From the NCBI GenBank assembly GCA_964016885.1, contig OZ024747.1, forward strand, positions 19,158,001 through 19,222,000: a stretch of DNA of 64,000 nucleotides, read 5' to 3'. Both the position numbers and the translations under genes were made by a program. The notes under the pieces are model-generated. The model saw only the letters and a program-made list of their open reading frames with translations. It did not search any database and was not told the origin of the DNA. Position 1 is the stretch's first letter; each line of letters begins with the position of its first letter. This stretch comes from Eledone cirrhosa. Taxonomy: Eukaryota. Shown piece by piece: positions 15,658 through 63,980 of the stretch.

Positions 15658-16595
<938 letters not shown>

Positions 16596-16749: not shown

Positions 16750-16990
16750 GTCCAGGTATGAGATATATAAGTATTTCAATTCTTTCTTTGTTAAGTTGTT
16801 GGAATTGTTAGATGTCTTTGATTGTTACCAGCATATGTTCTATTCGAGTATCACTACCCTCAGAATATATCGCATTGTTTTGTTCTGTAACAACTCTGGG
16901 TGTTATCATTGAGCGGTTCTCCAGGAAGTAAGGTCGAAATGATTGCGATGGCTTCTATGCCTTTGGCATTATATCGATCTAAACTCTCCA

Positions 16991-17080
<90 letters not shown>

Positions 17081-17238
17081 TTGGAATAAATGCTCTGAAA
17101 TAGCGATATATATGTGAAGATAGACATAGAATATTCGAAAATATTCTGTATGTTTATAATAAACATTTTGAAGACCTAATCGCTATAGAATAGAATACGT
17201 CACGTATTACAATTAGATTCTCGATAAAAGCAAGGGAA

Positions 17239-17281
17239 GTAACCTACGCGTTTCATTCTTATTAGAAATCTTCAGGATTAC
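17239..17281 (-). ncRNA. Type I hammerhead ribozyme motif
   Basis: Reverse complement reads GTAATC CTGAAGA TTTCT-AATA-AGAAT GAAA CGCG TA GGTTAC. Confidence 0.85.
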
Positions 17282-17548
17282 ATATCCAGTGCTTTTATCG
17301 AGAATGACACAGCTAGAGACTTATAGAATACTTAGCTGTGTACAGGAACTGGTTTGAAAGAGCGGTTGCCGGTCCGGCAGAAATTAGAAATTGGAATAAA
17401 TGCTCTGAAATAGCGATATATATGTGAAGATAGACATAGAATATTCGAAAATATTCTGTATGTTTATAATAAACATTTTGAAGACCTAATCGCTATAGAA
17501 TAGAATACGTCACGTATTACAATTAGATTCTCGATAAAAGCAAGGGAA

Positions 17549-17591
17549 GTAACCTACGCGTTTCATTCTTATTAGAAATCTTCAGGATTAC
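17549..17591 (-). ncRNA. Type I hammerhead ribozyme motif
   Basis: Identical to 17239-17281, 310 bp away. Confidence 0.85.
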
Positions 17592-17627
17592 ATATCCAGT
17601 GCTTTTATCGATAAAATCACTGGATAT

Positions 17628-17670
17628 GTAATCCTGAAGATTTCTAATAAGAATGAAACGCGTAGGTTAC
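17628..17670 (+). ncRNA. Type I hammerhead ribozyme motif
   Basis: Stem I GTAATC/GGTTAC, core CTGAAGA at 17634-17640, GAAA at 17655-17658, palindromic ACGCGT stem III, GUA site. Confidence 0.87.
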
Positions 17671-17937
17671 TTCCCTTGCTTTTATCGAGAATCTAATTGT
17701 AATACGTGACGTATTCTATTCTATAGCGATTAGGTCTTCAAAATGTTTATTATAAACATACAGAATATTTTCGAATATTCTATGTCTATCTTCACATATA
17801 TATCGCTATTTCAGAGCATTTATTCCAATTTCTAATTTCTGCCGGACCGGCAACCGCTCTTTCAAACCAGTTCCTGTACACAGCTAAGTATTCTATAAGT
17901 CTCTAGCTGTGTCATTCTCGATAAAAGCACTGGATAT

Positions 17938-17980
17938 GTAATCCTGAAGATTTCTAATAAGAATGAAACGCGTAGGTTAC
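17938..17980 (+). ncRNA. Type I hammerhead ribozyme motif
   Basis: Identical to 17628-17670, 310 bp downstream. Confidence 0.87.
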
Positions 17981-18100
17981 TTCCCTTGCTGTTATCGAGA
18001 ATCTAATTGTAATACGTGACGTATTCTATTCTATAGCGATTAGGTCTTCAAAATGTTTATTATAAACATACAGAATATTTTCGAATATTCTATGTCTATC

Positions 18101-18142
<42 letters not shown>

Positions 18143-21755: not shown

Positions 21756-21867
21756 TATATATATATGTATATATGTATATATATATACATATACATATAT
21801 ATACACACATATATATATATATACATAAATATATATATATGTATATATACATATATCAGGAAGGTAT

Positions 21868-21910
21868 ACGGTGCTGACGATAGCTAATAAGCTTGAAACT
21901 AATACAGCGT
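21868..21910 (+). ncRNA. Type I hammerhead motif (mutated stems I and III)
   Basis: ACGGTG CTGACGA TAGCT-AATA-AGCTT GAAA CTAA TA CAGCGT. Confidence 0.65.
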
Positions 21911-22289
21911 TCCTTTGTCAGTGTTGAACAAACGAGGAACGATGGTTGCTAGACACTACGGCTTAATACGGGATGTTTGTTTACAAACACACCGAGCATT
22001 ATAATAAATGTTCGGTGAATCCATACGTACATATATATATATGTGTGCATGTATGTATATATATATACATACTACTGTACGTCTGTATACATATATGTAT
22101 GTACGTGTACATACTTATATTTTAGTAACAGCCGTACTAAGAGTGGGAAATGAAATTTCGTTTCATTTTTTCCGTTTATCGTTTTCGGTGCACCTGGCCG
22201 ATTAACCCACTCAATATGCAAATTGGGCTACTCAGCCGTTAATATGCATAAGGTAAGTATATACGTTCAACAATCTGGCAGGAAGGTAT

Positions 22290-22332
22290 ACGTTGCTGAC
22301 GATAGCTAATAAGCTTGAAACTAGTACAACGT
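22290..22332 (+). ncRNA. Type I hammerhead ribozyme motif (intact copy)
   Basis: ACGTTG CTGACGA TAGCT-AATA-AGCTT GAAA CTAG TA CAACGT: perfect 6-bp stem I, palindromic ACTAGT stem III, GUA site. Confidence 0.9.
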
Positions 22333-22713
22333 TCCTTTGTCAGTGTTGAACAAACGAGCAACGATGGTTGCTAGACACTACGGCTTAATACGGGATGTTT
22401 GTTTACAAACACACCGAGCATTATAATAAATGTTCGGTGAATCCATACGTACATATATATATATGTGTGTGCATGTATGTATATATATATACATACTACT
22501 GTACGTCTGTATACATATATGTATGTACGTGTACATACTTATATTTTAGTAACAGCCATACTAAGAGTGGGAAATGAAATTTCGTTTCATTTTTTCCGTT
22601 TATCGTTTTCGGTGCACCTGGCCGATTAACCCACTCGATATGCAAATTGGGCTACTCAGCCGTTAATATGCATAAGGTAAGTATATACGTTCAACAATCT
22701 GGCAGGAAGGTAT

Positions 22714-44704: not shown

Positions 44705-44786
<82 letters not shown>

Positions 44787-44826
44787 GATATTAAATAAAT
44801 GGAAACTATATTTATAAAACCATATT

Positions 44827-44892
44827 TATTTCATTATATATATTTCAGGGATATCATATTAAAAATATGGTATGCCTTCTTCAGACAAAATA
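44827..44892 (-). ncRNA. Type I hammerhead motif
   Basis: Inverted copy of 45060-45125. Confidence 0.78.
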
Positions 44893-45059
44893 CAATATAA
44901 ACAGTCTTATAAATGGATAGATTTGACATACCTTACAGCTTCAACTTCCATTTAAAAAGTTGATTTGGTAGTCCAAATCACTACCAAATCAACTTTTTAA
45001 ATGGAAGTTGAAGCTGTAAGGTATGTCAAATCTATCTATTTATAAGACTGTTTATATTG

Positions 45060-45125
45060 TATTTTGTCTGAAGAAGGCATACCATATTTTTAATATGATA
45101 TCCCTGAAATATATATAATGAAATA
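45060..45125 (+). ncRNA. Type I hammerhead motif
   Basis: TATTTTGT CTGAAGA AGG-CATACCATATT..AATATGATAT-CCCT GAAA TATATA TA ATGAAATA. Confidence 0.8.
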
Positions 45126-45251
45126 AATAAGGTTTTATAAATATAGTTTCCATTTATTTAATATCGTAAATATACTCCAAATACTTGTTGAGTGCTTTTA
45201 TATCAGTTATAAATATTTACTCGTTGTAACCCAACAATTTAAATAAAACTT

Positions 45252-45589: not shown

Positions 45590-45895
45590 TTTGTGCCGAG
45601 ATTGTACAGCTCTTACATCGACTAAAGCTTAAAGCTTTTTTCCACGATACAACATTATTCACCCAGACGGGTTGCTTCACAAGTCTAAGTCGCAACAATT
45701 ACACTGGACGCCAAGCTCTGGCCTGTTCAGTACCTTCGACTTCTTTGTGGACACTTGCCGACATACTTTGAACCACCCTTTATCATCAGAGCCGATCCCA
45801 GGTTACCAACAGCTCGTGTCCGCCATCATTCGCCAACTCATCTCCTCCTCTCTCCTTACCCCACCACAGCCACAAACCTTATAGTACGCACCCCT
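45590..45895 (+). pseudogene. Decayed N-terminal fragment of another PLE ORF (Neptune/Poseidon-like)
   Basis: HRLKLKAFFH, WTPSSGLFSTFDFFVDTCR and PIPGYQQLVSAIIRQLISSSLL resemble pre-RT motifs of PLEs; frameshifted. Confidence 0.55.
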
Positions 45896-45929
45896 TAGTT
45901 TAAAACTGATAAAAATCCTCCTGATATAT

Positions 45930-46283
<354 letters not shown>

Positions 46284-51408: not shown

Positions 51409-51504
51409 AATGAAGTAATTCCGTCGGAAAAGTCCAGGAAAAAAGAGTGCTCTATGTAGGTAACAGAGCTTAATAGTTATGTAATAAACAACATAAGGCA
51501 ATTA

Positions 51505-51564
51505 TTCCATTTACCAGTGGTTTCTTAAAAGCAAAAAATTTTGCTTTCAATCATCAGAATGAAA
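51505..51564 (-). ncRNA. Type I hammerhead ribozyme motif
   Basis: Inverted copy of 51616-51675. Confidence 0.85.
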
Positions 51565-51615
51565 AATTCCTGGTCTATTTATTGATATAGAATATCAATA
51601 AATAGACCAGGATTT

Positions 51616-51675
51616 TTTCATTCTGATGATTGAAAGCAACATTTTTTGCTTTTAAGAAACCACTGGTAAATGGAA
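51616..51675 (+). ncRNA. Type I hammerhead ribozyme motif
   Basis: TTTCATT CTGATGA TTGAAAGCAA..TTGCTTTTAA GAAA CCACTGG TA AATGGAA; GUA site. Confidence 0.88.
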
Positions 51676-51700
51676 TAATTGCCTTATGTTGTTTATTACA

Positions 51701-51736
<36 letters not shown>

Positions 51737-54536: not shown

Positions 54537-54644
<108 letters not shown>

Positions 54645-54656
54645 TTAATATAGATG

Positions 54657-54707
54657 AGATTCTACAGGACTAGAACTGTTTCATTCATAAGAAATCATCA
54701 GGAATCT
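54657..54707 (-). ncRNA. Type I hammerhead ribozyme motif
   Basis: Inverted copy of 55167-55217. Confidence 0.88.
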
Positions 54708-55166
54708 GGGTATCAAAAAATAAATATGGTATTTATAGGTCTCTACAAGTGGTAGGAGAGGGTGGGGAGTGGGATGGGTGCAGGTCATTGGTTGATAGAG
54801 AAGGGAATTCATTAAAAGCTAATTCTACATAGCTATAGTTAATTTATATTTATTTATGTTTTTAGAGTAACAAAGGCAGACAGAATTCTATAAACAGGTT
54901 GTGGATGGCGTACCATTCCTTGTCAATAAGTTTCTCTGAGAAACTTATTGACAAGGAATGGTACGCCATCCAGAACCTGTTTATAGAATTCTGTCTGCCT
55001 TTGTTACTCTAAAAACATAAATAAATATAAATTAACTATAGCTATGTAGAATTAGCTTTTAATGAATTCCCTTCTCTATCAACCAATGACCTGCACCCAT
55101 CCCACTCCCCACCCTCTCCTACCACTTGTAGAGACCTATAAATACCATATTTATTTTTTGATACCC

Positions 55167-55217
55167 AGATTCCTGATGATTTCTTATGAATGAAACAGTT
55201 CTAGTCCTGTAGAATCT
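55167..55217 (+). ncRNA. Type I hammerhead ribozyme motif
   Basis: AGATTC CTGATGA TTTC-TTAT-GAAT GAAA CAG-TTCTAGTC-CTG TA GAATCT; all three stems close; GUA site. Confidence 0.9.
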
Positions 55218-55299
55218 CATCTATATTAAAACTGTTATACTCTGCTATGTATTGAGTACCTTACTTACTGTGGTTACCTCCGATTCAACCCGGAATAAA

Positions 55300-56028: not shown

Positions 56029-56192
56029 AACCTTATAGGCACCCGTTTTACGTGTGTTGTGTTGAGGCAAATAACTATGTGTATACTCTGGTAATGTATC
56101 TTACATTGCCCAGTGAGTGCGCTGAGATACAACCGGTACTGGCATTGATAAATATGCTGGGTCCGTCAACCCTTATATATATATATATATAT

Positions 56193-56477
56193 AAAATAAG
56201 TAGTTTAGAAAGCCACAACAATGCAGAGGGAAATCTCGAGGTAGGAAGTGAATGATAGATAGGAGAAATAGGAGAAAGTGAAAATTGAGAGAGACAAAGA
56301 TGAAAACAAAACAAAGGTAGAAGGGTTACCGTAGTGGAGATTTAATCTCAATATTTCGGGCTCACAGATCTTTGTCTCTCTCAATTTTCACTTTCTCCTA
56401 TTTCTCCTATCTATCATTCACTTCCTACCTCGAGATTTCCCTCTGCATTGTTGTGGCTTTCTAAACTACTTATTTTA
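56193..56477. repeat. Inverted repeat (~109-bp arms, ~66-bp loop) between TA tracts
   Basis: 56193-56301 is the reverse complement of 56368-56477. Confidence 0.9.
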
Positions 56478-62962: not shown

Positions 62963-63980
62963 TTATGGAGGATAAGTATCTGAAAGTGTGTTAAGTTTAT
63001 ATGAGCTGGAAAGCAGGTGTGATTTCATGTATGGGCAACTGGTAAAAATTTCCGTCTTTGTGTTCAGGCAGGTCTTTGGTGATTTAAGATTTTGCAATAT
63101 CCAAAATTTTTCATTTATGCAGAGCGTGCATTTTCTTGTTCCTCTAGCATATTTTTTAGATTGGTTCAAAATTGACCAATCTAGTTTATATTGGATGCCT
63201 TGGTCTTTCAAATCCCAGATTCTGCTAGCCAGAGCTGTTGTAAATCTTTTTTCTGGATGTCGAAAGGATGCGACATGTGAGTAATAACGCGTTTTGAATC
63301 TGTCTTGCGTCATACCCACATATCGTTCACTGGTGACTGGATGGTTGTTGCTGATGGTTGTCACATTAGCCGCATATACAATGGCTTTGGTGTTGCATTT
63401 GTAATGGGCATTCACTTTTGATTCTACAGGAGCAAGTTTGATTTTCTCTAGGTGATGTTTTGTTGAGGATATAGGACTTAATAGGGGGACCGCAGGAATA
63501 GCTAATTTTAACACAGTTTCTGTTAAAGATCTTATAGTATCTATGTGTTCTAGGGAAATGTTTATCTAGGAGTTCTAGGAATTTTTTGCCTACATTAGTT
63601 TTAACTGCTAGAGAGTAGGGGGGTGTGAACCAGATTATTTTTCTTTTCCTATTTTTATGTTTAATAGAGTTAGTGTAGTTAGGTATGTATTTAATCGGTT
63701 CGCTAAAGCCGCTATTTTGGAGGGCTTTATTATAGTAGGGGGATGCCTTATTGAAAATAGCTTCTGATGAAGAGAGGGTGGAGATCCTACGGCTAATATT
63801 AGGGATAAGGTTTTTAAAAACTATAGGTGGATGGCAAGATCCTTTATTTATATATTTTAAGTTTTCATTAGGTTTATGGTATGGTTTATAAGAAGCAGTA
63901 GGCAAATCTAAGTTTATATCTAGGAAATCTACATTGGAAAGGTTAGTATCAATAGTAATTTTAAGATTAAAACTAGCAAA
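62963..63980 (-). pseudogene. PLE reverse transcriptase C-terminus/thumb + GIY-YIG endonuclease, with one frameshift near 63400
   Basis: LKITIDTNLSNVDFLDINLDL..YKPYHKPN..YINKGSCHPP, RKRKIIWFTPPYS, KIFNRNCVKISYSC, CSCRIKSECPL / KCNTKAIVY..YVGMT..FKTRY..H..KCTLCINEK..LNTK. Confidence 0.92.

Follow-up and report, generated by a model that had tools for sequence, protein, structure and literature searches.

A young, mostly two-armed 310-bp hammerhead ribozyme repeat family with Penelope-type insertion ends in Eledone cirrhosa

The closest described systems are the non-LTR retrozymes of metazoans and the Penelope-like elements (PLEs). In the accessible text of two papers (PMC7229834; bioRxiv 10.64898/2026.07.22.740005), metazoan non-LTR retrozymes are low-GC tandem monomers of about 300 bp with one type I hammerhead ribozyme and no ORF, features shared by the 310-bp repeat family of Eledone cirrhosa described here; the short palindromic helix III is shared with axolotl HHR_Amex1 and the U.U at the base of helix II with HHR_Amex2, and PLEs co-occur with the metazoan retrozymes and with the 310-bp family alike. 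The published arrays are head-to-tail, the word 'inverted' being absent from the available text of the first paper and confined to a reference title in that of the second, whereas the 310-bp family is mostly two-armed; PLE mobilisation was proposed in those papers from co-occurrence and pLTR phylogeny, whereas here the insertion ends bear the PLE signature; and expression and circles have been shown for published retrozymes, whereas the 310-bp family is described here from DNA sequence.

Insertions of EN+ PLEs, in the available parts of two reports (PMC8557442, PMC3846280), include partial tandems and have as hallmarks an inverted 5'-truncated copy, a tail of 30–40 bp on one side only, and a (TA)n bias, all of which are shared by the 310-bp family; unlike them, it has no ORF, both of its arms are multimers of a small unit, and no autonomous relative was found. 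The PLE protein of PAc Poseidon, as far as the accessible text of PMC11167929 reports, is predicted to be dimeric, cuts and extends both strands of an AT-rich target in vitro, and starts reverse transcription at two internal sites, the stretch between which is the tail; these features have likely counterparts in the 310-bp family, and in both the start sites are downstream of the ribozyme cut. PAc Poseidon displayed no strand difference in the start site, with the later steps left open in that report, whereas the 310-bp insertions use each site once.

In L1 twin priming, a single RNA is primed by two 3' ends of the target, and microhomology joining of the cDNAs produces an inversion; this happens occasionally, and each arm is copied from a different part of a linear RNA. 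In the 310-bp family, by contrast, two-sidedness is the rule, both sites are fixed, and the two arms are copies of one and the same repeated unit.

Organization of the palindrome and its ribozymes

The window (the whole stretch of 64,000 nucleotides that was analysed) contains at 17073–18104 a head-to-head palindrome built from a 310-bp unit; it carries four type I hammerhead cores, all identical, and has (TA)n on either side. Its features are as follows, with monomer position 1 at 17665, the first base after the predicted cut.

17073–17611, minus strand: left arm, 1.7 monomers; the sense strand runs leftward and the outer end is 'long' (monomer 172)
17608–18104, plus strand: right arm, 1.6 monomers; the outer end is 'short' (monomer 129–130; CTTCA, then TA repeat)
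17608–17611, no strand: 5'-to-5' junction, a self-complementary TCGA common to both arms (monomer 252–255)
17665–17974, plus strand: cut-to-cut 310-nt monomer, the numbering reference, identical to the 159T subfamily form
17245–17554, minus strand: cut-to-cut 310-nt monomer, the minus-strand counterpart
17073–17114, minus strand: tail (monomer 131–172), at the long end only; contains GCTATTTCAGAGC, retained in relatives at 64–85% identity
17628–17670, plus strand: type I hammerhead 1, with stem I GTAATC/GGTTAC, core CTGAAGA, GAAA, and palindrome ACGCGT; predicted cut after 17664
17938–17980, plus strand: type I hammerhead 2; predicted cut after 17974
17549–17591, minus strand: type I hammerhead 3; predicted cut at 17555
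17239–17281, minus strand: type I hammerhead 4; predicted cut at 17245
16987–17072, no strand: left (TA)n target run, read from the sequence
18105–18131, no strand: right (TA)n target run, read from the sequence; a target duplication is illegible inside (TA)n

The first-pass annotation had described a 310-bp monomer that is both tandem and folded back, with two ribozymes on each strand, almost no divergence between segments, and no ORF, and this description is borne out. Direct repeats with a 310-bp period are present at 17073–17304/17383–17614 and 17605–17803/17915–18113, each arm being a partial tandem of the unit, and the inverted repeat spans 504 bp without a spacer, centred at 17609/17610; the arms differ by two mismatches in about 494 paired bases (17617 and 17991), and no open frame of at least 120 aa is found within the element. 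Two points are additional to that annotation: the outer ends lie at unlike monomer positions, 172 on the left and 129–130 on the right, and both lie in (TA)n. The element is low in GC and non-coding, without an LTR/PBS/PPT layout, and arrays of the family adjoin (TA)n directly; it lacks the RT plus GIY-YIG ORF that defines an autonomous PLE. Several other repeats are present in the window, including a direct repeat just upstream of the element (15658–15878 and 16273–16494, spaced 615 bp, 94% identical), a 422-bp direct repeat with a hammerhead-like core CTGACGA...GAAAC (21860–22400), two head-to-head palindromes from other families, in which each strand carries one hammerhead core (51473–51707 and 54641–55233), and additional palindromes with zero spacer (44778–45174 and 56192–56477).

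The ribozyme core CTGAAGA...GAAACGCGTA occurs four times, at 17634–17664 and 17944–17974 on the plus strand and at 17585–17555 and 17275–17245 on the minus strand, and stem II has a U.U pair at its base. The self-complementary stem III ACGCGT (17658–17663 and 17968–17973) and the predicted GUA cut after 17664 and 17974 agree with the annotation. Taken alone, helix III ACGCGU can have one pair and a palindromic tetraloop, and two copies can form a 6-bp helix (cofold -9.5 kcal/mol); the annotated association of such a short palindromic stem with dimer action is backed by the available text of PMC4209133 and PMC7229834, in which a palindromic helix III is typical of type I ribozymes acting as dimers. 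In folding, the 310-nt monomer outscores all 100 shuffled sequences (z -4.1), and stem I variants outside the search pattern retain pairing in 4/4 cases (2A, 276G, 277G, and an insertion near 2). An Rfam search gave no match for the element at the gathering score and a weak match to Hammerhead_HH9 at all four places (16–17 bits, E 0.4–0.9), and the ribozyme call is therefore based on the core, the stems and the variant pattern. Matches of the element to miRNA families are explained by hairpin shape alone.

Read-through in either direction had been expected to give both a 310-nt RNA and a long hairpin. The second expectation agrees with the folding and the first does not: in equilibrium folding of the full read-through transcript the pairing probability of stem I is 0.0 in both sense ribozymes, so that a hairpin of about 500 bp, in which all of the ribozymes are buried, is predicted rather than a monomer. 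For the inner sense ribozyme it is still 0.0 when the RNA starts at 17400, 17560 or 17590 (20 nt before the centre), and stem I forms (0.88–0.99) only without the antisense arm, with a start at 17610. By this prediction the locus would yield few circles and, if read through, long dsRNA; more probable origins of circles would be the unpaired outer stretches of lopsided arrays and transcripts that begin inside a sense arm.

The family in the genome and its insertion ends

The element belongs to a young and very abundant family of 310-base ribozyme repeats, whose insertions are mostly two-armed. A similarity search of its own 3.0-Gb genome gave at least 220 matches from the best 40 of 248 candidates, with 97–100% identity among the matches listed. 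The exact core occurs 987 times genome-wide and a sister-subfamily core with U at N7 13,732 times, with none for the reversed-pattern control of either; the search patterns fixed the core, so its conservation in these counts is not independent evidence for the ribozyme. The tail motif of relatives at 64–85% identity occurs 8,628 times. We read 62 exact-core loci (the 40 top matches and 22 more among the first 100 pattern matches) and 16 sister loci, and the head-to-head two-armed layout is present in 50/62 and 13/16, respectively, or 63/78 in total; in unselected runs along contig 1 it is present in 23/29 (exact core) and 12/15 (sister). Among the single-armed loci, one is truncated by the contig start and one by an N gap. 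As in non-LTR retrozymes, the monomers are tandem and within 150–450 bp, with one type I hammerhead each, and form a dispersed, mobile, multi-copy family. The first-pass reading of a young non-LTR retrozyme fits these features; that the fold-back is the usual insertion product of the family, and bears the Penelope tail signature, had escaped it.

Runs X4–X6, from three other organisms in three studies, each yield one 340-nt contig (310+30) that is a closed loop in the graph; such a contig would result equally from tandem repeats in DNA or from circular RNA, so that these say nothing on expression. The monomer contigs are about 98% identical to the 310-nt monomer, with 5–6 differences, mostly at variable ribozyme positions and mostly in agreement with sister subfamilies of this genome.

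Two further sets of arrays were noted among the loci. A related family of 313–320 bp with the same two ends is present at L059:3870-4530, L109:7490-7920 and L183-L188; several of its members have the core UUGAUAA, in which U3/A8 replace C3/G8 as a paired change, and a double mutant at the same two core positions restores activity, according to the accessible text of PMC11167929. In the one-armed arrays at L042:3668, L037:3562, L041:3468 and L034:3240 the 5' end is fused directly either to part of a PLE or to a different repeat family, and two of these partners show hammerhead-like cores; these arrays possibly represent two arms from different RNAs, or later deletions.

The outer ends are of two kinds. 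Short ends lie at monomer 125–139, mostly at CTTCA or CTTCACATATAT leading into TA, and long ends at 160–172, mostly at CCAAT, with the short site about 35 nt before the long site. Both ends are visible in 62 loci, of which 60 are long+short and two irregular, with none long+long or short+short. For the exact core, a script gave 46/50 long+short, L009 and L048 are long+short on direct reading, L049 is irregular, and L031 was left out because one end is outside the sequence examined; in the sister set 12/13 are long+short and L115 is irregular. Far relatives of the family retain both end sites. Neither outer end is the ribozyme cut, from which it follows that priming is internal. An inverted 5'-truncated copy beside the 5' end (63/78 loci), a tail of 30–40 bp at one end only (125–139 versus 160–172), and an AT-rich or (TA)n target in the flanks of the loci read are the same features as in EN+ PLE insertions, and the insertion ends of the 310-bp family carry the Penelope tail signature. 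A telomerase-like addition of TA at one end was considered and rejected, since the median TA run is 21.5 nt at long and short ends alike (rough script).

The same observations bear on whether the inversion could be an artefact of assembly or library preparation (a fold-back chimera), or a PLE end that stuttered locally at the DNA level. No sequencing record among those compared spans the exact junction at 17609/17610. However, the two arms stop at unlike, fixed sites, the layout is repeated at 63 loci distributed over many contigs, and contigs of the independent run X1 join the antisense to the sense arm at 11 or more other positions, as head-to-head junctions would; the unit itself is dispersed over at least 40 loci at 97–100% identity, and no PLE frame runs on from it in the loci read. 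We regard this explanation as highly improbable.

The genome contains three families with intact frames (719, about 713, and 784 aa) for which Pfam and PDB searches gave no name, and which we take to be PLE-like from their RT and GIY-YIG motifs. The first is head-to-head with TA ends, and long+short in 3/3 copies with both ends read; the tails are about 75 nt in the first family and about 87 nt in the second, not 35. Fragments of the 3' parts of two abundant PLE-like families, with the 719-aa and about 713-aa frames elsewhere, are also present in the window, at 62963–63565 (minus strand) and 45885–46283 (plus strand). The 310-nt monomer has no DNA similarity to the three families, terminal repeats included, and 30 loci with the tail motif of the far relatives contain no PLE frame. 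The autonomous partner was thus not found among the three intact-frame families; other PLE families are seen as fragments.

Central junctions, haplotypes and the template

Junction positions are spread across the whole 310-bp unit. There are 59 simple junctions, of which 45 were scored exactly (11 have no anchor and three were dropped for variants near the join); 11 of the 45 have a gap or a nearby variant, and at the remaining 34, which are gapless, microhomology of at least 2 nt is present in 21, compared with 18% by chance. Arm lengths are uncorrelated (rho 0.17, p 0.2), with up to 14 junction crossings per arm. The junction is perfectly symmetric in three of the 59 (the 17073–18104 locus at TCGA, L009, and L012), and a variant is common to both arms symmetrically about the centre at three loci (L004, L009, L046), which indicates that fold-back or arm-to-arm conversion happens at times.

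Fold-back could be the general route if priming were single and the first cDNA self-primed, as proposed by Arkhipova et al. 2013 (available text of PMC3846280), with the tail produced by an endonuclease resolving the hairpin. It would explain the sharing of haplotypes between arms directly, the three centre-symmetric common variants are in keeping with it, and the symmetric 17073–18104 locus is compatible with copying from the long arm; by itself, this locus fits either fold-back or two-sided priming. Geometry was assessed on the unrolled concatemer for 57 long+short loci, leaving out four with 3–4 segments and two irregular ones, and although 46 are compatible with fold-back, in 11 neither arm can have been copied from the other by fold-back, a number that matches the expectation for independent arms (10.7 +/- 2.8 with shuffled arms); later gain or loss of whole units could disturb this comparison. 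Nor do the inner ends cluster, with 13 loci within 31 nt compared with 11.4 by chance, and the longer arm is either one (19 versus 27 loci). Fold-back as a general route is disfavoured, and we consider it quite improbable.

The arms of a locus share their haplotype. At site 159, T and A are found in nearly equal numbers of loci, and the arms agree in 41/42 loci (21 A, 20 T), the sole disagreement being one unit beside a rearranged junction. In a comparison of 58 two-armed loci, 98 variants are fixed throughout both arms, in every unit that covers the site, and one is fixed in a single arm only; nine more, in subsets of units, reflect later exchange within arrays, and 127 occur in single units. 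Arms are concordant in 53/53 informative loci, compared with 39% after shuffling, with 20 haplotypes in the 53 loci; the marker sites were chosen from fixed variants, making this concordance partly circular, which the ratio of 98 to 1 and the 41/42 are not. Eleven fixed variants are each confined to a single locus, and a nested series, 20G and then 20G+260G, is found already fixed throughout both arms. In young sister arrays, which reach about 15 units, single-unit changes are nearly absent, yet the arrays differ among themselves. In 298 passes through the cut/ligation point (three poorly aligned arms were dropped) there are no indels and six substitutions, compared with 5.8 expected, which argues against sloppy jumps between linear monomers. 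The simplest reading of the haplotypes is that a single-unit bottleneck, that is a circle, is amplified at insertion, and a circle-based cycle is the one proposed for non-LTR retrozymes in the available text of PMC7229834.

A uniform linear multimer is a possible template too. Two-sided Penelope priming could take place on an uncut multimer transcribed from a uniform array, the ribozyme being a passenger or a rare cutter and the arrays homogenised at the DNA level. One haplotype per locus and exact cut-point junctions are expected here as well, and in L073 the arms carry identical variants in the same unit counted from the outer end; furthermore, in the accessible text of PMC11167929, PLE insertion in vitro is unaffected by ribozyme mutants and uncut RNA is the main substrate, and 8/9 frog dimers are without cleavage in that of bioRxiv 10.64898/2026.07.22.740005. 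Against it, new variants are already fixed in all units of both arms, including the nested series and the 20 haplotypes in 53 loci, and in arrays almost without other change, and such fixation means that a one-unit bottleneck is needed at most transposition steps; the retained pairing of stem I changes (4/4) also counts against it. We consider the linear multimer unlikely, if less so than fold-back.

A proposed Penelope-type cycle and its implications

On balance, we regard the family as probably a Penelope-type retrozyme that is non-autonomous, with both strands of a cut (TA)n target priming reverse transcription round one monomer circle. Copy number, the two arms, the fixed unlike ends, the TA target, one haplotype per locus, independent arm lengths, and short microhomology joins are direct observations on the family, and the following steps are suggested to account for them. 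Sense transcripts of arrays would self-cleave, probably as dimers via ACGCGU, and a host ligase would circularise the monomer. A Penelope-type RT-endonuclease, borrowed in trans, would cleave a (TA)n site on both strands and, as a dimer, begin at two internal sites separated by about 35 nt, one for each strand of the target. Each RT would then copy the circle by strand displacement, going a variable distance round it, and the two cDNA 3' ends would join via 1–5 nt of complementarity, with host repair filling in.

The more specific proposal, that a Penelope-type dimer works on one ribozyme-made circle, with each start site used once, one per target strand, and both RTs rolling round it, is tentative, at a little under even chances. 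The start sites have no strand preference in vitro in the available text of PMC11167929, and the strict long+short pairing is thus beyond present biochemistry. In a literature search, mostly of open papers without their supplements, we found no retrozyme arrays described as routinely two-armed with strict long+short ends, and no test of the clonality of a retrozyme template.

The family bears on which enzyme moves animal retrozymes, and from which template, and on how PLEs produce tandem and inverted insertions with a one-sided tail; it is young, abundant, and polymorphic enough for both questions to be tested from sequence, and a bench assay could use its 310-nt template, on which two start sites are mapped. 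By extrapolation, the genome would contain on the order of thousands of long perfect palindromes, which could feed small-RNA silencing or RNA editing. If a dimer does act on one circle, thousands of young two-armed arrays would be a direct record of retrozyme movement via a monomer circle and PLE machinery, the inverted-copy-plus-tail layout of PLEs would reflect obligatory twin priming, and balanced insertions would silence themselves as hairpins. The 17073–18104 locus is an ordinary one within the family, and the value lies in the family, as a test of the mechanisms of PLEs and retrozymes.
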